Virus record (IMG/VR): IMGVR_UViG_3300005337_000018
From: an uncultured virus (IMG/VR IMGVR_UViG_3300005337_000018)
Taxonomy: Duplodnaviria; Heunggongvirae; Uroviricota; Caudoviricetes
Length of the DNA: 22,235 nucleotides
Direction: 5' to 3' (one strand)
Made by a program: the position numbers and the translations under genes. Shown here one piece after another: positions 1 through 22,235 of the stretch (positions within the stretch are counted from its first letter, which is position 1; each line of letters starts with the position of its first letter). Below the pieces are notes generated by a model, which saw only the letters and a list, made by a program, of their open reading frames with translations, was not told the origin of the DNA and made no database searches.

Positions 1-266
1 ACCTTCACCGAGAACGGTGGAGTGACCATCGCGGCCGTGCCGACACACTGCATGATCGCCTGAGTCAGCTCCGGCCCCAGATCACCGGAGTCACCCAGCC
101 AGTTCAGCGTGATGTGCGGGGAATCATCCACCAGATCAGTGGCCGGATCCGTCTCGGCCGGAAGGGCGACGGTCAGCGCGCCGGTGTATCCGTCCGACTC
201 CTGTTCCTTCTCGACCTTGACGTAGGTGACCTCGACGTCGGACTCGGCCTCGTTCTCGTAGATCAC
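1..266 (-). CDS. 2H-phosphoesterase (2'-5' RNA ligase/Acb1-like) protein, 5' part only, runs off the window
   Basis: Not in the ORF track. GTG at 266 overlaps the portal stop (GTGA), with GGAGG upstream. Manual translation MIYENEAESDVEVTYVKVEKEQESDGYTGALTVALPAETDPATDLVDDSPHITLNWLGDSGDLGPELTQAIMQCVGTAAMVTPPFSVK; PHITL (HxT) motif, HITL at 105-116. Confidence 0.65.
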   Translation of the reverse strand, partial: MIYENEAESDVEVTYVKVEKEQESDGYTGALTVALPAETDPATDLVDDSPHITLNWLGDSGDLGPELTQAIMQCVGTAAMVTPPFSVK

Positions 267-3116: not shown

Positions 3117-4100
3117 TTAACTGGATCCACCGAACAGCGCGGCGTAGACCTTCTCGCGGCGCGCCCGGTCTTCTTCCCAGCGCTGCATCTCGGCCTCGCG
3201 CCTGGCCATCTCGTCGTGCGGCAGGTCCCCGCGACGCTTCTTGATCCAGTACGCCGGGAGGTAACTCTGCTCCGGACCCTCGGTGGAGCGCCGGGTGAAC
3301 GTCAGGAAGCACCGACAGTTGATCGTCTCGTCCAGCGGAGCACCGAGTGACACGTCACCGGGGAAGTTCATCTTCGCGCCGTGGATCGAGACGAACGGTT
3401 CGCCGATCGGCACCGAATGACTCTTGTAGCTCGTGGCCCCCAGGAATTGGTGACTCGGCCGGACGTGGGAGTCGCCGACGCTCTGCCAGTTCTTCCACAG
3501 GGTCGGACGAGTCCCCTTGATCGGCGCGGTGTCCAGGTCGTGCTCGAGCACGGCGTTCATCTGTGCCGCGTTCCGGCCGGTGACGGCCAGCATCTCGGCC
3601 AGCGTGGTCGGCGGATTGGAGCGGTCCGGCAACGTGCGCTCGGCGCGCCGGACCGGCCCGGTGTTCTCCGGGTTGGTGCGCATCAGATCCGCAGGCGTGG
3701 CCGCCGGATTCGCGTCGTGTCGTTGGTAGAACTGCAACACGTTGACCAGTTGGTTCATCATCGTGTCGACGGCGGCCAGGCTCGATGACTGCGCATAGGG
3801 CAGGAGCCGGTTGGCGTCCCGGTCCCGCACCCGTTGCCGGGCCAACGCTCGTTGTGCGACCTGCAGGAAGGCTCCACCGGCCAGCGCATCCAGCTTCAGC
3901 GCCTTCATCCACGCCGATGCCGGTCCGACGATCCGGCCCTTGGCCGTGCGGTAGGCGAGGTACGCGGCGAACACCGCCAGCAACGCTGGGATCAGCGCGC
4001 TGCCGTCCTCCTCGACCGCGGCATTCTCGGCATCGGCCGCAGCCTGTTGGGCAGCGGTGAGCCGGGTCCGCGGAGGTGGGGTCTGCTCCGGGCTAGACAC
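3117..4100 (-). CDS. MuF-like (SPP1 gp7-like) minor head protein
   Basis: KNWQSVGDSHVRPSH...VPIGEPF...FPGD...ETINCRC signature; GTG at 4100 overlaps the TerL end; the longer track ORF to 4760 is an off-frame overlap with TerL. Confidence 0.85.
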   Translation of the reverse strand: MSSPEQTPPPRTRLTAAQQAAADAENAAVEEDGSALIPALLAVFAAYLAYRTAKGRIVGPASAWMKALKLDALAGGAFLQVAQRALARQRVRDRDANRLLPYAQSSSLAAVDTMMNQLVNVLQFYQRHDANPAATPADLMRTNPENTGPVRRAERTLPDRSNPPTTLAEMLAVTGRNAAQMNAVLEHDLDTAPIKGTRPTLWKNWQSVGDSHVRPSHQFLGATSYKSHSVPIGEPFVSIHGAKMNFPGDVSLGAPLDETINCRCFLTFTRRSTEGPEQSYLPAYWIKKRRGDLPHDEMARREAEMQRWEEDRARREKVYAALFGGSS

Positions 4101-5598
4101 CGGTCCTGATCCCCCTGCCGCGCCCCAGGATCGATCCACGGCCCCGCGGGAGCGCGGCTTGGTGCCGGGTGTCCATCTGCAGTTGTGCCGTCGGGTAGAT
4201 CGCGGAGACGCCGGTGGAACCCTGTGCGGCGGCCGACGGGAACAGCCCGGCCGCACAAGCATGGACCAGCGCGTCCATCCGGTCCGGGGAGTAGCCGGTC
4301 TCTCCGGCCACGTAGGTGGTCTGCTGATCTTCCAACTCCGGCATCCGGTTGATGTGGTGGATCCGGCCCTGCTCGTAGGCGGCCCCGACCGGCTCGGCAC
4401 GGACGGCCTTGGCCTTGGAGGACCACACGGCAACGTAGTTCGGTGGCGGCAGACCGGCCGCGACCGCAGCCTGATTGACGTTCTGCCGGACCAGCCCCAT
4501 GCCCTGGTTGACCTCGGCGACGACCGTGGCCTGGTACTTGAACGCGGCCTGCGCCACCCGGTCGCCCCAGTTCGCCGGGGACATCCGGCCGGACAGATCC
4601 TCGACCACGAACGCATGGCGACGCAGGATCGGGAACGACCGGTTGACGAACACCACCACGATCCCGCACTCGTCCCGTGGCTTCTCGGCCACCGACGGGT
4701 CGACCCCGATGATCCGGATCCACTGCTGACCGGATGGCAACCTGCTGACCCGGTTCGCATCGATGATCATCTGCGAGATCATTGCGCCTTGGACCTCGTC
4801 CAGCAGTTCGCCGTCCAGTTCCTGTCGGCCCAGTGTGGTGCCCTCGTACAGCCCGAAGATCACCTCGCGGTAGATCTCCGACAGGTGGACGTTGTCGCTC
4901 GTCCGGCCCCGCCGAAGGATCACCTTCCCGTTGTCGCCGGACGCAGAGTCGGCAAGGATCTTGCGGATCGCGGGGACCCGTTTGGGAGTCGTGGTGGCGA
5001 GGATCTGCGGTCGTTTCCCCAGCCGGGTGGCGATCCGCAGGTTGTCCCACGCAGTCAGTTCCCCGGCCCCGACCCGCTGCCGGTAACTGGCCAACTCGTC
5101 GGCCCAAGAGATGTGGAATGCCGGACCGCGCAACTGGTCCGGCTCCTCGGCCGAGAAACACAGACAGACCCCGCCGTTCGGCAACTCCACCCGGCGTCGG
5201 CTGGGGATCCAGCGAACCTGGTCCACCATGCTGGGCGGCCAGATGTTGAGGAGTCCCGACGGTCCTTCCAGCATGGTGTCCCGGACGTCACCGGCAGTCC
5301 TCCCCAACAGCGCCACCCGTAGGTGCCCATCCCCGCGCTCGAGCTTGGCCCAGTTGCCGTCCAGTTCCCGTAGCCATTCCCCGCCGCACCGGGTCTTGCC
5401 CCACCCGCGTCCGGCCATGGCGAATGCCACGGTGAAATCGGCATCCGGCTCGTCATCCTGGACAGGCAGGATCTGGCTCGGTCGGCCGGTCCAGCGCCAG
5501 TCGTAAGCGAGCTTGTCCAGATCCAGCCCGGCGAGAACGGCCTCCTGCTGCTCCTCCGGGAGCAGCGCTACCTGTTGCTCGACCGACAGGTCATCCAT
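4093..5598 (-). CDS. terL: Terminase large subunit
   Basis: Walker A AGRGWGKTR, Walker B SWADE, TTTP coupling motif, RNase H-like GVDPS / DECGIV / PDRMDAL. Confidence 0.96.
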   Translation of the reverse strand: MDDLSVEQQVALLPEEQQEAVLAGLDLDKLAYDWRWTGRPSQILPVQDDEPDADFTVAFAMAGRGWGKTRCGGEWLRELDGNWAKLERGDGHLRVALLGRTAGDVRDTMLEGPSGLLNIWPPSMVDQVRWIPSRRRVELPNGGVCLCFSAEEPDQLRGPAFHISWADELASYRQRVGAGELTAWDNLRIATRLGKRPQILATTTPKRVPAIRKILADSASGDNGKVILRRGRTSDNVHLSEIYREVIFGLYEGTTLGRQELDGELLDEVQGAMISQMIIDANRVSRLPSGQQWIRIIGVDPSVAEKPRDECGIVVVFVNRSFPILRRHAFVVEDLSGRMSPANWGDRVAQAAFKYQATVVAEVNQGMGLVRQNVNQAAVAAGLPPPNYVAVWSSKAKAVRAEPVGAAYEQGRIHHINRMPELEDQQTTYVAGETGYSPDRMDALVHACAAGLFPSAAAQGSTGVSAIYPTAQLQMDTRHQAALPRGRGSILGRGRGIRTGV

Positions 5599-5599
5599 G

Positions 5600-6205
5600 T
5601 CATTCCCTGGCGATCAGGGCGATGTCCATGCCGGAGTACGCACCGTTCGACGTCAACGTCGCCGACCCGCTGGCGTTCGCCACCACCTGGAACTGAACCA
5701 CCGAGTTGGCCGGAACCGACCGGAAGGCCCAAGCACCATAGGACGTGCTCGCCGCCCGGATGTGTTGGTAGGCCATGACCTGATCGGAAGCGTTCTCCCG
5801 CAGCTCCAACTGGACGTTCTCCCCGGCCCCCAGTGCCGTGGCGTACCCACGGAAGAACACCATGGCGAACCGGAGGTGACTCTTGGCCGAGATCACGGTG
5901 TTGCTGATGTAGCCCAGCGTTCCGCCGCCACCCGGGAATGACACGCCAGCGGCAGCAGTGTGGTACCACTCCATCCGAGCGTATGCGGACACGGTATCGA
6001 TGTTGGCCTGCAAGGAGTTTCGCAGCGCGTTGTTGTCATTCGCCGCCGTGGTCTTGTTGGTGTTGATGAGCGTCGTCAGTTGCGACTTGTCCGACGCCAG
6101 CCCGGCCGCAACCGCCTTGGCCAGATCGGCGAACGCATCCGGCCCGTCCGCGACGTCCGGTAGTTCGGGCCACGGCAGGTTGTACGGTGCTCCGGTTGTT
6201 CCCAT
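5600..6205 (-). CDS. Minor tail/structural protein
   Basis: N-terminal TTGAPYNLPWPELPD..GPDAFADLAKAV typical of actinophage minor tail proteins, coiled-coil, beta-rich C-terminus; AGGAGA SD. Confidence 0.7.
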   Translation of the reverse strand: MGTTGAPYNLPWPELPDVADGPDAFADLAKAVAAGLASDKSQLTTLINTNKTTAANDNNALRNSLQANIDTVSAYARMEWYHTAAAGVSFPGGGGTLGYISNTVISAKSHLRFAMVFFRGYATALGAGENVQLELRENASDQVMAYQHIRAASTSYGAWAFRSVPANSVVQFQVVANASGSATLTSNGAYSGMDIALIARE

Positions 6206-6247
6206 CAATCTCTCCTGTTCCGGCCCGGCCTCGCGGCGGTGCCCATG

Positions 6248-6265
6248 ATTATGACCGGCCGGTCA
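6248..6265 (-). promoter_or_regulatory. Candidate -10 (CATAAT, 6248-6253) overlapped by a perfect 14-bp palindrome TGACCGGCCGGTCA (6252-6265)
   Basis: Read directly in the spacer upstream of the 6205-terL block. Confidence 0.45.
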
Positions 6266-7843
6266 CGGTAGAGCCTTGATCACCCAGATCACGCCGATCC
6301 AGGGAGGCGTGGTGTCGGTCGCTCCGGTGTTGGCCGGGGTGGTCGAGCCGGTCACCGTCGGCCCGCCGGAATCCGTCGTGCCGTCCAGCGGGGTGCCGGA
6401 GGTCTGCGCCACCGAGGAGCCGGACCCGGCCGAGTTGACCGTGGCCGTCGGGGTCCAGGACGGGACGCCCGACTTGCGGTTGACGTAGAGGCTGGGCGTC
6501 GAGGCGGCGACCGCGACCAGCGCCCAGCCGTTGCCGGACAGCGTGTGGGAGTGCGCGGCGATGGTGTGGGTGTGCGGATCGGACGTGTGGGTGTGCGTCG
6601 CCGTGCCGCCGTTGGTGTTCGGCGTGCCCCAGCGCGGGAACCGGGGCAGACCGCCGAGCGCGAAGTTGGGCACGTTGAACGTGGTCGAGCCGTCCCCCGC
6701 GCCCCAGGTCGTCCCGATGGCCGCGAACAACTCCGGGTAAGAACCGGCCCCGGAGCGCAGGTACTCACCGCCGTCGCAGCGCAGGTAGCCCGGCGCGGTG
6801 CTGTTGCTCGGTCCACCCCACGGGCAGATGATCCCGACCGGCGTGGCGTCCCGTGCCGGGTTCAGCGCAACCCAAGGACCGAATGACGCGGATGCCAGCG
6901 ACCGGAAGTACATCGCCTGCGTGGTGATGTTCGACTGCATCCACCACTGGTTGGCCACCGTGTTCGTTGCCGACTTGACGGTCATCACGGTTGCGCTGGC
7001 GGCGATCGGCCACCCGCCGTCGGCCTGCGCCTCAGCCAGCGTCACCGAGAAGATCGACACGCCGATCGGGTAGGAGACAGAGCCTGCTGCTGATGGCACC
7101 GGAAGGATCGTGCGAGCAGCCGGGTCCGTCCACGCCGTGTTGAAATCGGTCGCGTCGACCTTGGTCAGTACCTGCGCGGCAGCACCGCCCGCCGGGACTC
7201 CGGCACCACTGCCTGCTGGCCCTTGCGCTCCGGTGTCGCCCTTATCGCCCTTGTCACCCTTCGGCCCGGTTGCTCCGGTATCACCCTTCGGACCTTGCGG
7301 GCCGGGAACGGGTCGCAGGAAGGCGACGCGAGTCTGCTGCCCGGTGGTCGGGAACCCACCGAAAAGCGTGCTGTACAGAACCACCGTCGTAGAAGCCCCG
7401 ACGGTGATCGAGGTGATCGTTCCGGCCAAGCTCTCGCCGACGGTCATCCCGTCCAGTTGGATGATGTCGCCCGCGACGACCGTCGCCAGGGTGCTCGCCC
7501 AGTTGGTGCCGCCCACGTCGAGATTGGACATCTCGACCCGACCGATGGTCGCGTAATACTCGCCCGAGCCCGGGGTCGAGCTGAGGGTCCGGTTCCAGTA
7601 TTGGATGAGAACCCGCGACCCGCCGTACAGGCCGGTGGTTCCCCTGTCGCCCTTCGGTCCGGTCGGCCCCGGCACAGTCGAATCTGCTCCGGTGTTTCCA
7701 GTCGCGCCGGTCGCGCCGGTGTCACCCTTCGGTCCTTGACTGCCGGTCGCGCCAGTCGCACCCGTGTCGCCCTTCGGGCCCTGCGGACCCTGAGATCCGG
7801 GATCACCCTTGGGACCCTTGATGTTCCCAGTCAGCGTCGCCAC
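6263..7843 (-). CDS. Tail fibre-like protein: collagen repeats plus tail-collar domain
   Basis: GXY repeats; PVGIICPWGG...GYLRCDG...YPELFAAIGTTWGAGDGSTTFNVP tail-collar motif; TH(T/S)H repeats and terminal PPWIGVIWVIKA; GTG at 7843 gives MATLTGNIKGP, paralleling the neighbour's [11 protein letters not shown]. Confidence 0.85.
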   Translation of the reverse strand: MATLTGNIKGPKGDPGSQGPQGPKGDTGATGATGSQGPKGDTGATGATGNTGADSTVPGPTGPKGDRGTTGLYGGSRVLIQYWNRTLSSTPGSGEYYATIGRVEMSNLDVGGTNWASTLATVVAGDIIQLDGMTVGESLAGTITSITVGASTTVVLYSTLFGGFPTTGQQTRVAFLRPVPGPQGPKGDTGATGPKGDKGDKGDTGAQGPAGSGAGVPAGGAAAQVLTKVDATDFNTAWTDPAARTILPVPSAAGSVSYPIGVSIFSVTLAEAQADGGWPIAASATVMTVKSATNTVANQWWMQSNITTQAMYFRSLASASFGPWVALNPARDATPVGIICPWGGPSNSTAPGYLRCDGGEYLRSGAGSYPELFAAIGTTWGAGDGSTTFNVPNFALGGLPRFPRWGTPNTNGGTATHTHTSDPHTHTIAAHSHTLSGNGWALVAVAASTPSLYVNRKSGVPSWTPTATVNSAGSGSSVAQTSGTPLDGTTDSGGPTVTGSTTPANTGATDTTPPWIGVIWVIKALP

Positions 7844-7847
7844 GGAA

Positions 7848-8444
7848 TCACGCGCCCGCAAGGACGAAGACGTCTCCGGTGGTGGTGTTCAGGTAGTGAT
7901 CCCCGGCGATCGATCCCGCGATCGGCTCGACCGGGTTGGCCGTACCGGAGTACCAGCCGGTGCCCCGTGGTCCTGTCGGACCGGTCGAACCCGGAGTACC
8001 GGGGACACCTTGGGTACCGGTGTCACCTTTCGGACCCTGTGCGCCGGTTGCGCCGTCGGCACCGGCCGGACCCGTCGCTCCGGTATCACCCTTCGGACCT
8101 TGCGGGCCGGTCGGACCGGCCGGGCCGGTGATGTTCCCGGCGTCCGTCCACGAGTCACCGTCCCAGACCCACAGGTGGCCGGTGTCCGAGGTGATGTAGC
8201 CGTCGCCCGCGTCGTCCGGACCGAGATCTCCGGGCAGGGATCCGGAGTCCGGCACCGACCCGACGATGGTGACGCCGGTGCCCGGATCACCCTTGGGACC
8301 TTCAGGACCCTCGGGACCCTGTGGACCCGTGGCACCCGGATTGCCGGGAGGACCCTGGGCACCGGGTGTGCCGGGGGTACCGGGGGTTCCAGCCGTCCCC
8401 TGTGGCCCCTGGGGACCCTTCAGATTGCCGACCAGCGTCGCCAT
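7848..8444 (-). CDS. Collagen-like fibre protein
   Basis: Two GXY runs separated by [25 protein letters not shown]-terminal [22 protein letters not shown]. Confidence 0.88.
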
Positions 8445-9421: not shown

Positions 9422-9649
9422 ATGGAGTTTGGAGTCGGAAGCATCGGGCTCGCCGCCCTGATCACCTCGGTCGGGGGTGAGGTGGACGAAATCGACGGCA
9501 CAGTGAGGATCCTGACCGCGGAGTACCCGAACCCGGAGGATTACGCCTCGATCGTCCGGCAGGCCCACGGTGCGCTCGGTCGTTACCGGGACCGCATCAA
9601 GAAGGAGGAGTTGACGGTTGATGGCGTGGTCGATGCCCAGCCCGAATGA
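9422..9649 (+). CDS. Hypothetical protein (75 aa)
   Basis: MEFGVGSIGLAAL...; AAGAGG upstream; 5 nt after the previous stop. Confidence 0.7.
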   Translation: MEFGVGSIGLAALITSVGGEVDEIDGTVRILTAEYPNPEDYASIVRQAHGALGRYRDRIKKEELTVDGVVDAQPE

Positions 9650-10106
9650 CATACCGATCCTGCGGCCCAAGCCGCGGGCCCTGTTCCACTACACCTGCGA
9701 GCACACCCGCAAGACGGTCGGCCAGAACGGGCTGATCCGTCCGGCGAACCAACTGATGGACCCGCACGTCCTCGCCGAAGGCAGCGACGTGTCCCAGCTC
9801 CTCACCTCGGTGAGCTGGTGGTCGACGCACGGCGACATCGGCAAGCACAACGCCCACCTGGTCGGACTGAACAACCCGGACTTCCGCTGCGAGCGCTGGG
9901 CCTACCGCTACCGCGCGGTGCACAACGAAGTGGAGCGCATGGTGCCCTGGGAGGTGGAACAACTCGCCTGGCCGGAACACATCGCGGAGGCGGTCAACTC
10001 CTGGCACGGCGCGGAACCGCTGTCCTGGTACGTCTCGACCAAGCCGGTGCTCGCGCTCTACTCGCCGATCAAGGTCGGTGGCTGGGCCGGTCTGGTCAGT
10101 TCCTGA
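9633..10106 (+). CDS. Hypothetical protein, possible ADP-ribosyltransferase-like fold
   Basis: LFHYT...GLIRP...VSWWS pattern resembles H-Y-type ART folds; strong GC3 bias; start uncertain (9618-9633). Confidence 0.55.
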   Translation: MPSPNDIPILRPKPRALFHYTCEHTRKTVGQNGLIRPANQLMDPHVLAEGSDVSQLLTSVSWWSTHGDIGKHNAHLVGLNNPDFRCERWAYRYRAVHNEVERMVPWEVEQLAWPEHIAEAVNSWHGAEPLSWYVSTKPVLALYSPIKVGGWAGLVSS

Positions 10107-10107
10107 C

Positions 10108-10137
10108 TTGACAGCAAGTGCTACCAACCTGCATACT
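10108..10137 (+). promoter_or_regulatory. SigA-type promoter TTGACA-N18-CATACT
   Basis: Consensus -35 at 10108-10113 and -10 at 10132-10137, upstream of AGGAAGGGAG SD. Confidence 0.7.
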
Positions 10138-10168
10138 GTTGGTGTCAACAGAACAGGAAGGGAGCACC

Positions 10169-10540
10169 ATGAGTGCCTACGAAATTGCCGCCAAGTACGG
10201 GGTGGTCGAGACCAACGGGTTAACCGGTCCGGTCAACTACGACGCCTTCGCGCCGGGCGACATCACCGCCGACGAGCTGGCCGCCCGCGGCGGCCGCTTC
10301 ACCCGGATCCGCCTGCTCACCGAGCGGGGCTACCCGAACATGGACATCAGTTACATCCATGCCGAGGTCGACGGCGTCCCGCACCACGTCCGGATCGACT
10401 TCGACAGCCACAGCCTGCGGCGCAAGACCTACAGGTCCGACCTGCAAGCCGCGCTGATCCGCGACTGCGGCATCACCAAGGCCGACGTCAACCGGCTCGG
10501 TGTCTGGAACGACGGGACCTACTCGATCCTGTACGGCTGA
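10169..10540 (+). CDS. Hypothetical protein (123 aa) in its own expression unit
   Basis: Strong SD, GC3-rich codons, TRIRLL..GYP..DISY motif; promoter upstream and terminator downstream. Confidence 0.85.
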   Translation: MSAYEIAAKYGVVETNGLTGPVNYDAFAPGDITADELAARGGRFTRIRLLTERGYPNMDISYIHAEVDGVPHHVRIDFDSHSLRRKTYRSDLQAALIRDCGITKADVNRLGVWNDGTYSILYG

Positions 10541-12462: not shown

Positions 12463-13212
12463 TCACTCCTGCACGCACACCAGAACCGGCAGATCCCGGT
12501 CCACCGGGGCGCGCTGGTGTACCTCCACCTCGGCCTGAATCCAACCCGAGGGACAAGGCAGCGCGGTCGGAGTCAGTTCGATGGTGCCGGGTGGACCGGT
12601 AGGCCCGATCTGCCCGGACGGCCCCGGCGCACCTGTCGGGCCTGGTGTTCCCGGTGGACCGGTCGGTCCGGCCGGACCTGTGGGACCTGATGGCCCGGTT
12701 GCCCCGGTCGCACCCGGCTCACCGCTGGGTCCGGGTGGGCCTGTTGCCCCGGTCGGACCGGGCGCTCCGGTGGGCCCTGCCGGGCCAGCCGGTCCCGGGG
12801 CTCCGCTCGAGCCCGGAGCGCCGTCCGCTCCCGGCACACCGTTCACCCCCGGCGGCCCCTGATCGCCCTGTGGGCCTTGCGGACCGACCGGGCCGGTGTC
12901 TCCGGGTACCCCGGGTGGCCCCGGACCCCCTGGTGCCCCGTCAGAACCATCGTTCCCGTCGGTTCCGTCCACGCCGTCCTGTCCGTCCTGACCGTCGGCA
13001 CCGGGCTCACCTTGGGGGCCAGCCGGACCCTGCGGACCGGAGGGACCCGGCTGACCCTGCTCAGTGACTACCACGGCGGCCGGTGGAACGGGGGCTGACG
13101 GGGGCGTCGTGTCAACCCCCGCCAGCGCTTGCCAGCCGAACACTCCGATGAGCACGACGGTGGTGCCCGCCGCCGCCATGCCCATCGCGTAGATCGGGCG
13201 GGTCAGATCCAT
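12463..13212 (-). CDS. Membrane-anchored collagen-like protein of the lysis cassette
   Basis: N-terminal hydrophobic helix, long GXY run, C-terminal CPSGW...LVC; starts immediately after the holin-like stop. Confidence 0.85.
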
Positions 13213-13472: not shown

Positions 13473-14264
13473 TCAGGTCGCGTTGTCGACCCTTGTCATG
13501 CGGTACGCAGCGCGGCCGGTGTACGTGGCGCTCGCCCCCAGCGCGTCGGTGATGGAGCCTTTCACCTGCGTCTCCTTGCCCGACCCGGCGTCCGTCTTGT
13601 TGTACGAGACGATCTTGTCGGTGCGCATCCTGTCCAGCACTGCGTCCGCGATCTTCTCGGTGTCGGTCTCATCCATCTCATCGATGTCCGGCAGCACACC
13701 CGGCCGCCATTGCCCGTAGTCGTCGGCATACGCCCGGTCAAGATCGACGTTGGCCCCGACCAGTTGGACGTTGTTGCTGTACTGCCAGAGCTTCGCCCGC
13801 GGATCCCGGGTGTCGGACCAGGCGTAGGTCTGCCACGCCCAGTCGGTCACCCCGCGGTCCAGCATCTCGGTGACCACCGCCTCGCCGCCGTACATCCCGG
13901 CCACGTAGGGCGACAAGTGCGCGGCGTACTCGAGCAGAAAGTCCTCGATGGCGTTGAACTGGCTCGACTGCGCGTCGAAGTCCACCGCGAAATAGATCGG
14001 ACGTCCGGCCGGTACGCCAACCGACTTTGCCTGCTTCACCGACTCTGCGGCGCACCACTGCGCGGATGGCGTCGTCTGGCCATGCCCGGCTTCCCACACG
14101 ACCACCCACCAGAGCCCGGCTTTCGCCCCGGCGTCCGCTTCGGCTCGGGTGAGGTTCTTGACCGGTTCATCCGAAAGATACCGGCAGGCGAAATGCTTTC
14201 CCGCGGAAACCAACTTCGCGGGATCCGGCCGGTCGTAGGAGTAGTCGACGCCTTCCAGAGCCAC
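13473..14264 (-). CDS. Endolysin, GH25-like/DUF1906 (Rv2525c-like) glycoside hydrolase plus shared C-terminal domain
   Basis: GVDYS, FACRYL, KNLT, IYFAVDFD, GMYGG, WQTYAWS, VDLD motifs. Confidence 0.88.
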   Translation of the reverse strand: MALEGVDYSYDRPDPAKLVSAGKHFACRYLSDEPVKNLTRAEADAGAKAGLWWVVVWEAGHGQTTPSAQWCAAESVKQAKSVGVPAGRPIYFAVDFDAQSSQFNAIEDFLLEYAAHLSPYVAGMYGGEAVVTEMLDRGVTDWAWQTYAWSDTRDPRAKLWQYSNNVQLVGANVDLDRAYADDYGQWRPGVLPDIDEMDETDTEKIADAVLDRMRTDKIVSYNKTDAGSGKETQVKGSITDALGASATYTGRAAYRMTRVDNAT

Positions 14265-14268
14265 CGGC

Positions 14269-14478
14269 TCAGGTCTTGTTGTCGACCGACGTCGCGCGGT
14301 AGGCAGCGCGACCCGAGTAAGTCGCGGAGGTACCGAGAGCGTCGGTGATCGACCCCTTGACCTGGGTCTCCTTACCGCTGCCCGCGTCGGTCTTGTTGTA
14401 CGAAACGATGTCGTCCTCGCGCATCTTCTTGATCACCGCGGTGGCGACCTTCTCGATGTCGTCGCTGCTCAAAGCCAT
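14269..14478 (-). CDS. Predicted in-frame internal product: stand-alone endolysin C-terminal domain (69 aa)
   Basis: GGAGGAG (14487-14493) 8 nt before in-frame ATG 14478, at the GGGDDD-M linker. Confidence 0.6.
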   Translation of the reverse strand: MALSSDDIEKVATAVIKKMREDDIVSYNKTDAGSGKETQVKGSITDALGTSATYSGRAAYRATSVDNKT

Positions 14479-15111
14479 GTCGTCGTCTCCTCCGCCGTCC
14501 ATGTACCGCTGCACGTTCTTGACCAGGTCCTGACCCTGCTTGCTACCGGAGGCAACCCCGCCCTCCCACGACATGTCGATCTTCCGGTTCGACCAGGCGT
14601 AGTGGTTGATCGCCCGGTTCGCGCTGTAGCCCCACTGCATGAACTCGGCCGCGTTGATGGCGAACATGATCTGCAGCATCACGTTCGGCCACGGCGTCGA
14701 GTCACCCGGGTGCTGGCACTCGGTCCCGGAGTAGGACTGGTTGCCGGACATGTCCCCGGCCGACCCGGCGACGGCGTAGTTCGGCTGGTCCTGCTTGGTC
14801 CGGTTCAGCACCGAGGAGTTGCCGGTCCCGGCGTGATTCATCGGACCGGTGCCGATCAGGTACGCCTTCCCGTTGACGTCGGCGAACCAGTTGACGGTGG
14901 ACCCGCTGGCGAGAGTCGAGACCAGACTGTTGATGTAGCTCTGGTCCGGGTTCAGGCTGCAGACGTAGTGGTGGTTGACATGGCCGACCGGCTTGCCGTT
15001 CGACCACCCGGTGCCGTTGCTCCGGCCGTAGCAACCGGAGTATTCGGTGACGTTGAATCCCCAGTCGCGCAACCGCTTGACGATCGCCTTGAAGTCGTCG
15101 GTGATGCTCAT
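14269..15111 (-). CDS. Endolysin, N-acetylmuramoyl-L-alanine amidase (Amidase_2-like) plus shared C-terminal domain
   Basis: NHHY, NHAGTG, GTE, INHYAWSNRKID match the actinophage amidase pattern HHT..HAG..GIE..GHKEW..KxD; ATG 15111 in an ATGA overlap. Confidence 0.85.
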   Translation of the reverse strand: MSITDDFKAIVKRLRDWGFNVTEYSGCYGRSNGTGWSNGKPVGHVNHHYVCSLNPDQSYINSLVSTLASGSTVNWFADVNGKAYLIGTGPMNHAGTGNSSVLNRTKQDQPNYAVAGSAGDMSGNQSYSGTECQHPGDSTPWPNVMLQIMFAINAAEFMQWGYSANRAINHYAWSNRKIDMSWEGGVASGSKQGQDLVKNVQRYMDGGGDDDMALSSDDIEKVATAVIKKMREDDIVSYNKTDAGSGKETQVKGSITDALGTSATYSGRAAYRATSVDNKT

Positions 15112-15353
15112 CCTTCTTCGCCCTCCGCGTCTCCGCCCTCCCGGACGATCCGCCCGTCGGCCAGGCGCACGAAGCCACGCTCCACCCAAAGCTGACGGAG
15201 TAGGTGAGCGAGAATGGCCCGCCGGACCTTCGGGTCCGGATCCATCCGCTCGACCAGCAGTTGGATGTCGACGTCGATGCCGCCGTCCCCGCCGTCCCCT
15301 TCGGTGTCGCCGCGGGGTAGGAGGCGTTCGCGCTCGTCTCCGGGTTCGGTCAT
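15108..15353 (-). CDS. Small acidic protein coupled to the amidase (81 aa)
   Basis: MTEPGDERERLL...; GAGAAGGGA SD; its TGA overlaps the amidase ATG. Confidence 0.7.
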   Translation of the reverse strand: MTEPGDERERLLPRGDTEGDGGDGGIDVDIQLLVERMDPDPKVRRAILAHLLRQLWVERGFVRLADGRIVREGGDAEGEEG

Positions 15354-15360
15354 GGGGCAT

Positions 15361-16822: not shown

Positions 16823-17044
16823 TCACGACCGTGGCCAATGGTGCCAGCGGAAGTTCGGAGTACCTACCCCCACCGGGGGTCCGACGTGCTCACCGAAGTG
16901 CTTGCGTTCCAGATCGCACCGGCAGCCGAACTCACAGCCATGTCGGGACCGGCACCGAGAGTTGGCGATCACCGCTCCCATCACCATCACGATGATCAGC
17001 GCCATGATGCCGGTGACCACGGTGACCAGCGTCGAGTCAGTCAT
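16823..17044 (-). CDS. Membrane-anchored Cys/His-rich small protein
   Basis: MTDSTLVTVVTGIMALIIVMVMGAVIA followed by CRSRHGCEFGCRCDLERKH. Confidence 0.6.
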   Translation of the reverse strand: MTDSTLVTVVTGIMALIIVMVMGAVIANSRCRSRHGCEFGCRCDLERKHFGEHVGPPVGVGTPNFRWHHWPRS

Positions 17045-17249
17045 TGTCACTCTGGATCGAGAACCCGTATGCGTCAAAGCGTTTCGGGTCTTCATCCGGT
17101 TTCAGGTCATCATCCAGCAACCAACTGACCTGCTCGAGCGTGGGAGCGGTGTAGTCCTGGCAGTTCCCGCACCACCCTTCCTTCCGGTCATTCGGGTTGT
17201 AGGACGTCCGGCCGCAGACCGGGCAGACGAACGGCGGGGAGTCAGGCAC
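17037..17249 (-). CDS. Small zinc-ribbon protein
   Basis: FVCPVCGRTSYNPND...WCGNC. Confidence 0.75.
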   Translation of the reverse strand: MPDSPPFVCPVCGRTSYNPNDRKEGWCGNCQDYTAPTLEQVSWLLDDDLKPDEDPKRFDAYGFSIQSDND

Positions 17250-18645
17250 GGGATCGTGCGATCCGTTGTTCGACCATGGGTAGGTAGGTGGCCTCGCGCT
17301 CGATCCCGATGGCCCGGAACCCTTCCAGCATCGCGGCCTCGACGGTGGTGCCGGAACCTACGAAGGGGTCCAGCACGGTGCCGTCGGGCGGGGTGACCAG
17401 CCGGACCAGCCAGCGCATCAGGGCCAGCGGCTTGACCGTTGGGTGGCCGGTTCCGTCGACCGAGGGACGTTCGGACTTGGAAGCCTTGGCCACGTAGAAG
17501 AACCGGGACGCACCACCGGTGTCGGCATGGAACGGCGCGATTCGGTCGGTGCCGTTGAAGTGCCCGGCCATGCTGCCGCGCTCGGACCGGCCGGTGAGCG
17601 TGGGACCGCTGGCCCGGCCCGCGGCCCCGGTCTTGGGGGCCTGCAGATCCAGGACTTGGGCCTGGGACTCGTCCAGGATGACGTTCGCGGGCCAGCGACC
17701 GAGTGACTCACCGGGATGATCCTCGGCGAACCGTTCCGGTGTGGTCCGTGAAACGACTCGCCCGGAAGCGTTGTGCTCGGCCGCAGCACCCGCACGCTGG
17801 CCGTCCAGGTGGTTCGTCGCTCCCTTGCGCCGTGCGATGGACGGGTTGACCTCGTCCTCGGCCCCGGCGATCCGGGTGCCGTCGATGTTCAGGGCCCCGG
17901 TGCCGTGGGTCAGGACATTGACGGCCACGGTGCCGATGAGGGGTTTGCGGGCCACGATGATCGGCTCGAACGCGGGCTTGAGCGCGGTGCCCCAGCCGGA
18001 CCACCGAGTGGCGTCCGCGGTGGCCGGTGCTGTTGTGGTCGGCACGAACTCCCGGCCGTTGTCCTTGATCCAGCTTCCGGTCGCGTTCTGGTCCGCACCG
18101 GGAATCATCCGTTTCACCGGTCGGCCCGTCGAGAGCACCTCGCGCTCGGCACCGGCCATCTTGTCCATGTCCTTGGAGATGTCCCGGGACTTGGGGAAAC
18201 CGGATCCGTACAGCCAGGCGATGGAGTCCCGGATCTCGAACCCGGCGTCCTCGATCGCCGCGGCGAGCCGGTGCCAGGTGCGGGTGCCACCGAATGACAG
18301 CAGGTGCCCGCCGGGCTTGAGCACCCGCAGGCACTCGGCCGCCCACGCGGTCGACCACTGCTGGAACTTGTGGGAGTCGTGGTCGTGATACCCGCGGTCG
18401 TGGGTGCCGCCGTAGGCGTAGATCCCGCGCTGCTCCTTGCCGGTGGCCATCTGGCCCTTCATGGCGGCCGGGGAGTCCCATTCCTTGCCCATGAAGCCCA
18501 GCCCGTAGGGCGGGTCGGTGACCACGGCGTCGACCGAGTCCGGTGGCAAGGTCGCCATGACCCGTAGGCAATCCCCGTGGTGCAACCGGATCCCGCGGAC
18601 GGGATCGAAGTAGCGGGCGGCGGAGATCGCCATCATGGACGTCAC
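17242..18645 (-). CDS. Orphan N4-C/N6-A DNA methyltransferase (beta class)
   Basis: HHGDCL, TDPPY (motif IV) preceding HPTVKP and VLDPFVGSGTT (motif I); start GTG 18645 (GTGA overlap) or ATG 18636. Confidence 0.93.
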   Translation of the reverse strand: MTSMMAISAARYFDPVRGIRLHHGDCLRVMATLPPDSVDAVVTDPPYGLGFMGKEWDSPAAMKGQMATGKEQRGIYAYGGTHDRGYHDHDSHKFQQWSTAWAAECLRVLKPGGHLLSFGGTRTWHRLAAAIEDAGFEIRDSIAWLYGSGFPKSRDISKDMDKMAGAEREVLSTGRPVKRMIPGADQNATGSWIKDNGREFVPTTTAPATADATRWSGWGTALKPAFEPIIVARKPLIGTVAVNVLTHGTGALNIDGTRIAGAEDEVNPSIARRKGATNHLDGQRAGAAAEHNASGRVVSRTTPERFAEDHPGESLGRWPANVILDESQAQVLDLQAPKTGAAGRASGPTLTGRSERGSMAGHFNGTDRIAPFHADTGGASRFFYVAKASKSERPSVDGTGHPTVKPLALMRWLVRLVTPPDGTVLDPFVGSGTTVEAAMLEGFRAIGIEREATYLPMVEQRIARSRA

Positions 18646-18989
18646 TGCTGGGGCCTCCGGATGAACTGCCAGGTCCCGGCCAGCGGATGGTTCGGCGGGG
18701 CGATACGAGCAAACCATGTCCCGGCGTCGCCGGGCTCGGGCTCGGGGAACCGGCTCCGGATGGCCTGGTGCACCGAACAGGCACGCAGGTTGGATTCCGG
18801 GTTCAGTCGCTCGAGCAGCGGGTGCTCCACGATGAACTCGATCTTGCTGGGCTCGAAGACGTCGGCACTGTCGGTGTGGAGCAACTCGATGGTGTGGTGA
18901 GTGGTGGTGAGTTGGGTATCCAGCATGGCCCGTTGGACGGGTGTGAGCAGGTCGACGGGGGACGGGTCCGGGTGGTCAGACGACACCAT
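18642..18989 (-). CDS. Hypothetical protein (115 aa)
   Basis: GGAGG SD; tight overlaps with both neighbours. Confidence 0.7.
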   Translation of the reverse strand: MVSSDHPDPSPVDLLTPVQRAMLDTQLTTTHHTIELLHTDSADVFEPSKIEFIVEHPLLERLNPESNLRACSVHQAIRSRFPEPEPGDAGTWFARIAPPNHPLAGTWQFIRRPQQ

Positions 18990-19428
18990 GGTCGGCGGCC
19001 CTCCGGGACAGGATCTCGTAGGCCGCGCTGTACTGCTCGGAGTTGGGCTGGATGGCCGCGATGACGGCCTGGGCCTTGGCCGTGACCCGGATGAAATCCG
19101 AGATGCCGAGATCCGGGAACAGGTCCCACATCTCGCCCATGAAGTCCGCGTTGGCGGCCTGCCCGATGAGCCGGAACGCGATGGTCAGGATCGCGGTGTC
19201 GACCACGACGTCGCGGGTGGGCGGGGGAGTGCCGGGAGCGGTGTCGGCGATCCGCAGTTCGGCCGGGAGTGACACCAGCGAGGGGTAGGCCAGCTCGGTG
19301 GTCGAGACGATGTGGTCGCGGTGTTCGGTCTCCGGCGGATTGCAGGCAAGGTTCTCCGGGCTGGTCCAGCGGCCGTCGTCGCGTTCGAGAAGGTGGTGGC
19401 AGCCGGGGCAGTTCAGGGTGTCAGGCAA
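18976..19428 (-). CDS. Hypothetical protein with N-terminal CxxC (about 150 aa)
   Basis: Helical-looking C-terminal half with GC3 bias; TTG 19428 overlaps the upstream stop; start uncertain. Confidence 0.6.
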   Translation of the reverse strand: MPDTLNCPGCHHLLERDDGRWTSPENLACNPPETEHRDHIVSTTELAYPSLVSLPAELRIADTAPGTPPPTRDVVVDTAILTIAFRLIGQAANADFMGEMWDLFPDLGISDFIRVTAKAQAVIAAIQPNSEQYSAAYEILSRRAADHGVV

Positions 19429-20095
19429 GGTCGGATCCGGGGGTTTCGAGCTGGGTCCGGGCCACGGCGGCATTCGCCCAGAACGCGGCCTCCTCGAGTT
19501 TGGTCTGGGCCAGCGAGGACTCCCGGCCGGATGGCACGGACTCGGCGAGGTACAGGGCCAGCGAGGTGAACCGGAGCCGGATCTCCTGATGGGCCTCGGC
19601 CACCTGGTCACTGGTCGGCGGGTGGTGGGCGAACCGGTCGCGGATTTCGTTACGGGAGGCGGATGCAGGGTGCACGGATGATGGTTTCCTTTCCGGGGAC
19701 GTGTTCTCCTGGCGGATCAGGGCTTCCAGGATGCGCCGGGCGTCGTGGAGATAGTGCTCGGGCCGGGGTTTCTCGCCGTAGGGCTTGTCGCCACCGAGAT
19801 CGTCCCCGGTGTCCAGCACGACGGCGAGCGCGGCGGCCAGAGCTTCCTGCGTGACGCTCTGGACGGCGAGGACAGGAGTGGGAGGGGTCTCGGTGGGGTC
19901 GGGCGGCGGCCAGTGGCCGTACTGGGGTTGCGGTTGTGAGCGGCCGAACTCGCGGTAGTGCACGGCGGCCCGGTCCGAGAGTCCGCAGACGTCGCACACC
20001 CGGTCCGATCGGCCCCGGTACGGGTGCGGGGTCCGGGCGACCAACAGGGCCCGGGGCCACCACCGTAGATCCGGCTCCCAGTTGTCGTCACTCAT
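19421..20095 (-). CDS. Multi-domain protein with N-terminal Zn-binding motif and C-terminal Acb2/Tad1-like helical hairpin domain
   Basis: PHPY..CDVCG...VH; C-terminal EIRDRFAHHPP...RESSLAQTKLEEAAFWANAAVAR. Confidence 0.75.
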   Translation of the reverse strand: MSDDNWEPDLRWWPRALLVARTPHPYRGRSDRVCDVCGLSDRAAVHYREFGRSQPQPQYGHWPPPDPTETPPTPVLAVQSVTQEALAAALAVVLDTGDDLGGDKPYGEKPRPEHYLHDARRILEALIRQENTSPERKPSSVHPASASRNEIRDRFAHHPPTSDQVAEAHQEIRLRFTSLALYLAESVPSGRESSLAQTKLEEAAFWANAAVARTQLETPGSDLA

Positions 20096-20360
20096 AGAGT
20101 CCCAAATCGTCGGTGAGCCTGGTCAGTTCGTCTGCCGCTGCCTGTTGACCGGCGAGCCGTTCGGCAGCGGCCTGTTCCGCGTCGATCTGTTCGAGGATGG
20201 CATTCCGGGTGGCGGCCACGGCGACCTCGGCCTGGTCGATCTTGAACTTCCGCTGGGCGGGTCCGGCCAGGTCCCATTCGGGGCCATCGGGATTCGAGTG
20301 GGCGTACAGGGCGCGGGCCACGGTCTCGATGAGCGGGCTTTGTTCAGCGCTCGCGCTCAT
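20088..20360 (-). CDS. Hypothetical helical protein (90 aa)
   Basis: IETVARALY...W.....QRKF..QAE motif; ATGA overlap. Confidence 0.7.
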   Translation of the reverse strand: MSASAEQSPLIETVARALYAHSNPDGPEWDLAGPAQRKFKIDQAEVAVAATRNAILEQIDAEQAAAERLAGQQAAADELTRLTDDLGLYE

Positions 20361-20686
20361 GGGGATGCCGCCAAGCGGTAGGTCGGGCATGGCCACGGGG
20401 TCATGGACCCGCACTCGTCACAATGGTTCGGGGCGTCGGGCTCGTGGGCGGGTTCCTCGGAGCCACCGAATCGGGAGCACCAGTGCGTGATCGGCTCGCC
20501 GGAGTCGGCGTGCAGTTCGATCAGGGCGGCCCGCAGAGTGGTCAGGGTGGTATCGGTGGTTCCCCGCCAGACCGCTTGGGCTGGCTTGTTGGCGTGGTCC
20601 CAGCCGTCGTGACGGCCACGGGCGTCCGTCGGCCAGTCGCATCCGAAGTGCTCACCGGCCAGGTTGAGGGCCGCTGTGCAGGTCAT
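20357..20686 (-). CDS. Cys/His-rich hypothetical protein (109 aa)
   Basis: MTCTAAL...C...H...H and HCDECG..WPCPT; ATGA overlap, GAGGTG SD. Confidence 0.7.
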   Translation of the reverse strand: MTCTAALNLAGEHFGCDWPTDARGRHDGWDHANKPAQAVWRGTTDTTLTTLRAALIELHADSGEPITHWCSRFGGSEEPAHEPDAPNHCDECGSMTPWPCPTYRLAASP

Positions 20687-21066
20687 CGGGGGATCACCTC
20701 GAGCCAGACGGCCTGCGGGTGGGTGACCGCCAGGTCGTTGACGGTGCGCAGGTGCCCGGCCAGGTCCAGGGCCTGCACGGTGAACGGCTCGGGGGGATGC
20801 AGGGGTCGTTCGTCGGGCTTGGGCGGTGGGGTCGGAATGACACGGAGGAACAGCACCCGCCCGGACCGCGAGTCCAGCGGGGTGAGGTTCTTGCGAACGG
20901 TGGAGGAGTCGGGCTCGAACCAGTGCACCCACACGTCGGCGGCCAGGGCCGGGTGCCACCGGGAGTCGGGGTCGGTGGTGGGTGGTTCGGGGGGAGTGGG
21001 AACGGGAGTGGGGTCGTGCAGGACCGGGTCCTGGTCGGGCGGGTAGGGATGGGTGGGGTCAGGCAT
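20683..21066 (-). CDS. Hypothetical protein with Pro-rich N-terminus (127 aa)
   Basis: GGAGA SD; overlaps both neighbours. Confidence 0.65.
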   Translation of the reverse strand: MPDPTHPYPPDQDPVLHDPTPVPTPPEPPTTDPDSRWHPALAADVWVHWFEPDSSTVRKNLTPLDSRSGRVLFLRVIPTPPPKPDERPLHPPEPFTVQALDLAGHLRTVNDLAVTHPQAVWLEVIPR

Positions 21067-21508
21067 GGCGGGTGTCTCCCAGAGTCGTGTGCCAGATCAG
21101 GGGGAAGGCGCGCAGCCACGGTAGGGCACCACGGCGCAGGGCCACGAAGGACGGGGTGGGGTGGTCGGGGTCGGTTCGGCGGTGCCGCATGTAGAGGGTC
21201 AGGTCGGCGGCCAGCAGGACCGCGGCGAGGAACGGCAGCACGGTCAGGGCCAGCCCGGAGTAGCACAGCACCGCCATGACGGCGAGGAAGATGCGGAAGC
21301 CGGAATGACCCGTGGTCTGCTGCCAGGTGGGCACGGAGCGGTTGAACCGTCCCAGGGCGGCAGCGGCTTCCCGGTTGCTCTGGTTCCAGGCCGCGCCGAT
21401 GGATGGGCCACGGCTCCGGGCGCGACCGCGCTTGGAGTGTGGAATGACGTTGCCGGACACGGAGAACGGTCCCGGCAGGTGGGCGTGCCAGCGGAGTCTG
21501 GGCATCAT
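21059..21508 (-). CDS. Membrane protein (149 aa), first gene of the leftward accessory operon
   Basis: GAGGAG SD; basic N-terminus followed by hydrophobic segments. Confidence 0.7.
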   Translation of the reverse strand: MMPRLRWHAHLPGPFSVSGNVIPHSKRGRARSRGPSIGAAWNQSNREAAAALGRFNRSVPTWQQTTGHSGFRIFLAVMAVLCYSGLALTVLPFLAAVLLAADLTLYMRHRRTDPDHPTPSFVALRRGALPWLRAFPLIWHTTLGDTRHA

Positions 21509-21536
21509 GGGCTCCTCTCGTCGGGGCTACGTGTTG

Positions 21537-21542
21537 AGTGTA
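21537..21542 (-). promoter_or_regulatory. Candidate -10 (TACACT) of the leftward accessory operon
   Basis: Lies in an AT-rich patch about 29 nt upstream of ATG 21508. Confidence 0.45.
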
Positions 21543-21559
21543 CGTCATATTTGGTTGAG

Positions 21560-22235
21560 CGCGCTATATGGGGGATCTCGCGGGGGTGGGCCGGTTTCGA
21601 GGGGGCTTGTGCTGTGGGGTTTCCGGGTGGGTTGTCCACCCGTGTGGATGGAATGTGGATGGGGACTCGGACGACGGGGCTGGAAAGTGAGTGGGGTTCG
21701 GTCGAGAAGGTGGGGGCGCTACCCCGCCGGGCCGCCGCCGGAACCAGTCGGGGTCCGAGCAACCGACCGCAGCCACCCACCCGGGGGGTGGGGTGGCAGG
21801 GGGACAGCAGGGCCGAATGAAGGCGTGAGTGCGTGGCAGAGCAGAGCGTGGGGTGTGGGGCAGGGGGTGGGGGGAGGGGCAGGGCCTCATGCCTCGAGGG
21901 TGATGCGAGGGGGAGGGGGGAGGGGGTAGCAGGCAGGTGTGCAGGAGAGGCAGAGCAGGGCCTGGAAAGGCAGGGCAGGACAGAGGAGAGGTAAGGCAGG
22001 ACAGAGGAGAGGTGAGGAGGAAGTGAGGAGAGGCAGGGAGGAGTTGAGGCAGGAAGGAGTGAGCAGGCAGGGGGGAGGGGGGTGGCAGGTGGTACAGGTG
22101 CAGGAGGACGTGAGCCTGGGAATGACAGGGGGGTTTGTGCAGGTCAGGACGTGTTGAGTGGGGATGACACATGAGGATCAAGCGCGAGGGATCAAGAGCT
22201 GCAGCTCGAGCTGCTCGAGCTGCAGGAGCTGGCAA
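21560..22235. other. Non-coding G/purine-skewed low-complexity region
   Basis: Long G-runs and AG tracts on the plus strand; ORFs give only P/L/S/H- or G/R-rich low-complexity translations. Confidence 0.75.
21974..22013 (+). repeat. Direct repeat GGCAGGACAGAGGAGAGGT x2
   Basis: Identical 19-mers at 21974-21992 and 21995-22013. Confidence 0.85.

Follow-up and report, generated by a model that had tools for sequence, protein, structure and literature searches.

A predicted Acb2-family sponge homolog with an unusual orphan N-terminal extension in uncultured actinobacterial phage DNA

We analysed a stretch of 22,235 nucleotides (nt) from an uncultured virus of the Caudoviricetes (IMG/VR record IMGVR_UViG_3300005337_000018), hereafter the window. 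On its minus strand, at 19421..20095, lies an open reading frame (ORF) of 224 amino acids (aa) which, judged from its sequence, encodes a homolog of the Acb2-family sponges, unusual in the orphan extension that stands before the sponge domain. Its C-terminal 70-80 residues would make it a member of an Acb2 sponge clade, marked by F-x-H-H-P-P before helix 1. An earlier note on this DNA, made from the letters alone, had located the same 224-aa ORF at this position and strand, and had called its C-terminal part an Acb2/Tad1-like domain. The ORF lies as claimed, and the domain call is right (PF24729, E 5.4e-16; Acb2 homolog 43, Protein Data Bank (PDB) entry 9PTQ, E 3.1e-11). The call is also already in print, with the exact 224-aa protein listed as row 3042 of the Acb2 homolog sheet in Table S1 of Hadary et al. 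2025 (PMC12393519). The features of the ORF are as follows, with confidence of the model given as the predicted local distance difference test (pLDDT).

19421..20095, minus strand: whole ORF, 224 aa, with an orphan N-terminal extension and a C-terminal Acb2/Tad1 hairpin domain
20088..20095, minus strand: start overlap, ATGAGTGA, where the ATG overlaps the stop of the upstream 108-aa ORF (20088-20414) by 8 nt
19676..20095, minus strand: N-terminal extension, residues 1-140, with a coding signature and no detectable relatives
19958..20026, minus strand: candidate zinc knuckle, H24-x9-C34-x2-C37-x8-H46, from the translation (model pLDDT 50-62)
19868..19939, minus strand: Pro/Gln-rich linker, residues 53-76, the sole part that varies among near-identical copies
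19703..19855, minus strand: two predicted helices, residues 81-95 and 112-131 (AlphaFold2 with alignment)
19687..19693, minus strand: Shine-Dalgarno (SD)-like GAAAGGA, codons 135-137, from the sequence
19673..19675, minus strand: in-frame GTG, codon 141, candidate internal or ancestral start that would give 84 aa
19457..19627, minus strand: Acb2/Tad1 hairpin domain, residues 157-213, with helices 163-186 and 191-217 (PF24729, profiles and model)
19421..19428, minus strand: end overlap, TTGCCTGA, where a candidate TTG start of the downstream 150-aa ORF (18976-19428) overlaps the stop by 8 nt

The C-terminal hairpin and its family

The match to PF24729 (Acb2/Tad1 hairpin) aligns residues 157-213 with positions 2-58 of the 58 in the profile, at 59 bits, with a gathering cutoff of 27 bits, which places the hairpin well outside what chance would give. 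The phage family phrog_1454 is matched as well, at residues 144-215 (E 7e-25). The C-terminal text that the earlier note quoted, RFAHHPP...GRESSLAQTKLEEAAFWANAAVAR, corresponds to residues 154-213.

A HMMER search of 1.84 billion representative proteins returned 2505 relatives at E<=1e-3. Among the 150 listed, the alignments mostly begin at query residues 142-150, and PF24729 is present in all of them (150/150). The alignment of these 150 relatives served as our family profile, and counts of N-terminal length use 148 of them. Searched against the PDB, the profile reaches 9PTQ over 46 positions that include both helices; the single sequence reaches the same protein at E 0.0068. All of the near-invariant residues of the family are retained, namely F155, H158, P160, R173, R191, E192, T198, E201, E202, W206 and N208. 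The clade signature of the hairpin can be read as GRE-SLA-TKLEEA-FWANA-IAR. From these profile matches, membership of the PF24729 hairpin family is secure.

In terms of structure, AlphaFold2 run with the alignment predicts two long antiparallel helices, at 163-186 and 191-217, with pLDDT of 90-97. The prediction from the single sequence is poor (mean pLDDT 41). The hairpin model resembles hairpin-domain proteins of actinophages in BFVD, with a best template modelling score (TM) of 0.87 and a root-mean-square deviation of 1.0 over 70 columns.

The best solved relative by profile, Acb2_43 (9PTQ), is phage-encoded like the 224-aa protein, and both have the P-x-GRE-S...TKLEEA-F motif and both helices. 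According to PMC12393519, Acb2_43 is a stand-alone protein of 76 aa whose short N- and C-terminal beta strands build a pocket for the cyclic ADP-ribose isomer 3'cADPR. The 224-aa protein differs from it in its F-A-H-H-P-P ahead of helix 1 and in the 140 additional residues that come first.

As for Tad1, the family profile matches chains 8KBH, 8KBG, 7UAV, 8KBE and 8KBB at E 3.9e-4 to 3.9e-3 over about 20 positions, and the aligned region is the RE..A.T..EEA..W core. The full-length single sequence has no Tad1 match at E<=10. Tad1 (7UAV, 8KBB-8KBH) is alike in having an N-terminal domain followed by a C-terminal hairpin; however, its N-terminal domain, which forms the pocket for gcADPR, finds no match in the 224-aa protein. 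The likeness to Tad1 proposed in the earlier note thus holds for the hairpin core of about 20 residues and not for the N-terminal domain, and by sequence the 224-aa protein is not a Tad1.

The published collection places this clade in context. Hadary et al. gathered 4204 non-redundant Acb2 homologs and tested 46 (PMC12393519); the 224-aa protein is absent from the tested-protein entries of that paper. In the same sheet of Table S1, YHPP occurs in 451 sequences, HHPP in 58 and FWANA in 500, and therefore the clade makes up a large part of Acb2 as that paper defines it. By eye, and within rows 1-41 of Table S2, the motif F-x-[YHF]-H stands before helix 1 in ten tested homologs (#4, 6, 14, 17, 20, 27, 33, 35, 37 and 38). 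Two of them, #4 (67 aa) and #33 (126 aa), fall by eye in the same clade, with F-x-[YH]-H-x-P and ...EA-[FM]WANA-[IV]AR; unlike the 224-aa protein, neither has a Cys/His motif in this comparison by eye.

The orphan extension and the internal start

The N-terminal 140 residues are coding and in the same frame as the hairpin. The G+C content at codon positions 1/2/3 is 0.74/0.52/0.84 in codons 1-140 and 0.71/0.52/0.86 in codons 141-224, in one frame. In sliding windows, G+C at the third position stays at 0.80-0.93 along the ORF, with a drop to 0.70-0.73 at codons 121-150. The identical 224-aa protein is found on 3 contigs, which come from three source collections and measure up to 86,520 bp. In two variants, P0001 (H61F, D66A) and P0152 (P64A, D66A; cut at the 5' end), the frame is likewise open and the differences are confined to the linker. 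An assembly artefact is unlikely because the ORF is intact on the 3 contigs and in the two variants, and the fusion of extension and hairpin is real. The earlier note had asked whether relatives carry a stop upstream of 19675; the frame is open in all three near-identical sequence variants.

The start and the end of the ORF follow one pattern, with successive genes sharing 8 nt (ATGAGTGA and TTGCCTGA). The SD site before ATG 20095 is weak (-4.0 kcal/mol), and the overlap suggests that translation of the 224-aa ORF is coupled to the upstream 108-aa ORF. At the other end, TTG may be the start of the 150-aa ORF at 18976-19428. Translational coupling may be widespread in this phage, which is suggested by the many gene starts with weak SD sites (median -4.9 kcal/mol for 25 assumed gene starts).

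We found no relatives of the extension. Word-index searches with residues 1-140, at near and shorter lengths, gave only its own 99% twin or nothing. Scans of metagenome and genome contigs gave no relative and no split arrangement, and a scan of viral contigs turned up nothing but hairpin genes of the stand-alone kind (L001 of 73 aa and L002 of 80 aa). For the same residues, scores in the ESM Atlas were 0.77 or less and no Pfam family was matched. Within the window, BLASTP against all six-frame ORFs gave no paralog of the N-terminal part.

In the AlphaFold2 model, residues 1-140 have no strands and low confidence. The linker is disordered, with pLDDT below 50 at residues 46-59 and 72-79. Of the two predicted helices, the one at 112-131 is modelled with pLDDT of about 83-86 and the one at 81-95 with about 68-71. 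The earlier note had described a zinc-binding motif and a helical domain upstream of the hairpin. The residues H24, C34-x2-C37 and H46 and two helices are indeed there, with zinc binding being putative only. We take the extension to be lineage-specific, consisting of a putative zinc knuckle, a Pro-rich linker and two helices. BLAST alignments to relatives P0050 and P0051 extend back to residue 118. We considered helix 112-131 as part of an ancestral longer hairpin protein and dropped the idea; residues 100-147 alone gave a best E of 0.30 against 146 relatives.

An extension of this length is rare. The conserved Phe is preceded by a median of 17 residues among the 148 relatives, and by 154 in the 224-aa protein, whose extension is the second-longest of the 150 sequences compared. 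Half of the relatives (75/148) have 9-19 residues before this Phe, in line with the remark in the earlier note that such sponges are usually small and stand-alone, and 14/148 have 60 or more. The 224-aa protein exceeds the size that is typical of these sponges (usually below 100 aa). This size is typical and not strictly defining, because the tested homolog #33, at 126 aa, is active according to PMC12393519.

Extensions as such nevertheless recur in the family. Cys-rich motifs precede the hairpin in at least 7 of the 148 relatives (P0031, P0041, P0074, P0075, P0086, P0120 and P0146). This screen covered the 104 of 150 sequences whose core was found by regular expression, plus P0031 by eye. In P0086, a Lar restriction-alleviation zinc ribbon (PF14354) stands with the hairpin (E 4.7e-7; 30.4 bits, cutoff 28.6). 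P0074 and P0120 have in common a finger-like C-x2-C...H-x4-H motif before the hairpin. These three relatives may be two-in-one anti-defence proteins. The N-terminus of the 224-aa protein is unlike the Cys-rich modules of the relatives and unlike the published fusion partners, and the 224-aa protein has no match to PF14354 at E<=1.

The boundary between extension and hairpin carries the signature of a start site. As the earlier note described, GAAAGGA at 19693-19687 is followed after 11 nt by the in-frame GTG at 19675. This motif is fully complementary to the tail of the 16S rRNA. The predicted duplex, at -10.3 kcal/mol, ranks 6 among 270 internal in-frame starts (ATG, GTG or TTG in 25 ORFs), and only four of the 25 assumed gene starts are stronger. 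Among the five internal sites that rank better, at least one, at 10169, is probably a true gene start, the start having been set too far upstream.

The codons that make up the motif are also unusual. GAA AGG AAA CCA TCA is one of only six windows with four A-ending codons among 5416 windows of five codons, in a genome where A at the third position has a frequency of 7.3%. Of the other five such windows, one immediately precedes the likely true start of ORF 10118-10540, and codons 3-7 of ORF 5600-6208 form another.

The position of the GTG also fits the family. In a product begun at GTG141, Phe155 would be preceded by 14 residues, within the modal range of 9-19. With 8 internal in-frame start codons in the 223 codons of the ORF, the chance of one falling within the 11-codon window is about 0.33, which multiplied by 6/270 gives a rough joint chance below 0.01, by our own estimate. 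Around the site, the local RNA shows no more folding than shuffled sequence does (z +0.71).

These features go moderately beyond chance and support a real start-site signature at the module boundary, one that would fit both the fossil of a once separate gene and a start that is still used. The simplest explanation for the SD-GTG at codon 141 is that a sponge gene which once stood alone began here, and the site may still be functional. Of the two origins that the earlier note had suggested, a protein made both free and fused has support from these sequence features, and a recent fusion through loss of a stop codon would be conjectural.

Proposed function and rival readings

By homology, we consider it rather probable that the gene acts through the mechanism of phage-encoded Acb2 sponges. 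Translation would begin at ATG 20095, coupled to the upstream gene, and the protein would carry the 140-residue lineage-specific extension in front of the sponge. The hairpin domain would homo-oligomerise, as Acb2 proteins are hexamers. Pockets between the subunits would then soak up the nucleotide alarm signals of Thoeris or of the cyclic-oligonucleotide-based antiphage signalling system (CBASS), so that the host effector would never be switched on. The likeliest ligand would be a cyclic dinucleotide of the 3'3'-cyclic GMP-AMP (cGAMP) type, with 3'cADPR as second choice; the ligand is not readable from the sequence. The analysis itself shows the ORF, the homology of the domain, the coding signature and the sequence features of the internal site. 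Oligomerisation, ligand binding and anti-defence activity are what we infer here, together with the history and use of the internal start.

Tested relatives make a sponge function plausible. In the plaque assays of PMC12393519, 7 of the 10 motif-bearing homologs inhibited CBASS or Thoeris in at least one system. Homologs #4, 6, 14, 20, 33 and 35 are validated there against the cGAMP CBASS of E. albertii, and #27 against type I Thoeris and a CBASS that signals through cUA. Homolog #33 has an N-terminal extension of about 65 aa and is active in the same work, and for this reason an N-terminal extension need not preclude activity.

Several results weigh against a sponge role or against the precise link to Acb2. 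Three of the ten tested clade relatives, #17, 37 and 38, are inactive in PMC12393519. The same paper describes Acb2_43 as hexameric and as blocking type I Thoeris and not CBASS; its ligand is 3'cADPR, and its extreme N-terminus helps to form the ligand pocket, so that a 140-residue extension could interfere there. The founding Acb2 sponges, PaMx33 Acb2 and T4 Vs.4 (7UQ2), belong to the same Pfam hairpin family as the 224-aa protein, and the family profile does not reach either of them at E<=1. Fold searches with the monomer are uninformative. Foldseek against the PDB gave no hits at E<=0.001, and 7UQ2 was found only at rank 30 (E 3.4; TM 0.52 by target), a lone helical hairpin not being discriminating. 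In VIA-align, 733 chains reached Z>=5; unrelated helical proteins led the list and 7UQ2 stood at rank 36 (Z 6.5). These fold matches do not surpass those to hundreds of unrelated helical hairpins. Of the searches that the earlier note had proposed against Acb2 and Tad1, those with profiles gave matches and Foldseek against the PDB was non-specific. Because a lone helical hairpin matches hundreds of solved chains, the case for homology rests on sequence profiles.

The other readings differ in which product matters and which part of it acts. One of them, possible and on the doubtful side, is that both starts are used, ATG 20095 for the 224-aa protein and GTG 19675 for a free sponge of 84 aa. Mixed assembly of the two forms may then leave some of the six subunits free of the bulky N-terminus. 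The strength of the SD duplex, above that of 21 of the 25 assumed gene starts, argues for it, as do the rare codons from which the motif is built, the GTG at the modal N-terminus of stand-alone relatives, the low joint chance and the lack of excess RNA folding. However, the spacing of 11 nt is at the long end, GTG is the weaker start codon, and no promoter-like site is nearby (18900-21700). Moreover, an unused fossil start would be expected to have the same features, and the sole full-length relatives are 99% identical and thus uninformative on conservation of the site. If the ORF were instead two adjacent genes merged through a mistake in assembly or sequencing, or through inactivating read-through of very recent origin, only the 84-aa product would matter. 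The SD and start codon at codon 141 would fit such an artefact, and family homology does start within a few residues of that codon; yet we hold it highly improbable. The same 224-codon frame recurs on the 3 contigs from separate collections, the variants P0001 and P0152 remain open with substitutions in the linker only, the codon-position pattern runs unbroken through a single frame, the 420 nt upstream of codon 141 are free of stops, and the start is coupled to the upstream gene through the 8-nt overlap.

A further reading takes the hairpin as mainly an oligomerisation scaffold and places the activity in the N-terminal zinc knuckle and helices, which might serve, for instance, in anti-restriction or in binding nucleic acid or protein; the protein would then not primarily be a signal sponge. 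It draws on the recurrence of Cys-rich N-terminal modules on the hairpin, on the Lar zinc ribbon of P0086, on the place of the gene two ORFs upstream of a DNA methyltransferase, and on the fusions of anti-defence modules that a preprint documents for other sponges (bioRxiv 10.1101/2025.07.12.664507). We think it unlikely. The N-terminus matches none of those Cys-rich modules nor any family and has only one CxxC, and the near-invariant residues of the family are kept, as would be expected if a sponge pocket were under selection. That preprint describes the fused sponges Tad2-Acb4, Tad2-PF21825 and PF21825-Acb4, and reports that the Sequestin family was uncovered through fusions of sponge modules. 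Fusions of the Tad2-Acb4 type are a precedent for a sponge and a second module in one phage protein. In those described there, both halves are recognisable families, whereas the partner in the 224-aa protein has no relatives or family. Combining the ideas, the gene could encode a counter-defence protein of two sizes and two modules, where the orphan part is a new module (a second sponge or an anti-restriction module) and free 84-aa subunits, begun at the internal SD-GTG, co-assemble with the long form. We rate this combination as quite improbable; the hint for such a module is that Cys-rich and Lar-type fusions recur on the hairpin. The sponge mechanism by homology remains the reading that we prefer.

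Genomic setting and significance

The G+C content of the window is 67%. We read the window as DNA of an uncultured actinobacterial phage, because its portal protein shares no more than 43% identity with the portals of cultured actinophages (of Microbacterium, Gordonia and Arthrobacter, and an 'Actinomycetia phage') and because it has scant DNA-level match to cultured phages. In a megablast query with 17000-22235, the sole such match was about 200 bp of the methyltransferase gene, 83-86% identical to mycobacteriophage methyltransferase genes. The annotated genes of the window are the following.

263-1921, minus strand: portal protein (phrog_776, E 1e-100)
4093-5598, minus strand: large terminase (Terminase_6N and Terminase_6C)
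6263-7861 and 12463-13212, minus strand: two collagen-repeat tail-fibre proteins
13473-14264 and 14269-15360, minus strand: two endolysin-type genes
17242-18717, minus strand: N6/N4 DNA methyltransferase

The 224-aa ORF is placed in an accessory region, among small unannotated genes upstream of the methyltransferase. The methyltransferase may in truth start at GTG 18645 or ATG 18636, both of them with SD sites better than that of ATG 18717. The ORF at 18642-18989 (minus strand) and the hairpin-bearing relative P0088 both have sub-threshold matches to DUF6085. A link between these two was dropped, with a pairwise E of 12.

The flanking ORFs at 18976-19428 and 20357-20959 (both minus strand) each have a single CxxC and no family assignment. 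In the former, CPGCHH is near the N-terminus, and in the latter HCDEC is near the C-terminus. Neither has BLASTP similarity to the N-terminus of the 224-aa protein. The stretch 18900-21700 gave neither promoter-like nor terminator-like sites.

Elsewhere in the window, one of the two collagen-triple-helix repeat proteins has a phage tail collar domain. The block between their genes includes the plus-strand ORFs 9618-10106 and 10118-10540, with no family. The longest-ORF start of 10118-10540 has no SD (0.0 kcal/mol). ATG 10169, with an SD of -12.3 kcal/mol and an A-rich codon cluster before it, is probably the real start of this ORF. In the lysis cassette (13473-15360, minus strand), one gene has a Rv2525c-like glycoside-hydrolase domain (PF08924) and the other matches phrog_880. 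We take this cassette to resemble the lysis sets of two enzymes that phages of mycolic-acid bacteria carry.

Acb2-family sponges are a main phage route to silencing CBASS and Thoeris signalling, and they have so far been treated as tiny proteins that stand alone. The 224-aa gene joins such a module to a large lineage-specific extension, with a start site kept at the module boundary. If the extension is not functional and the internal start not used, the gene would be one more Acb2 homolog, already in a published table, from an uncultured actinophage. A functional extension would be a lead to a new counter-defence module through fusion, following the logic behind the Sequestin family, and use of the internal start would offer the phage a simple way of tuning the make-up of the sponge oligomer.

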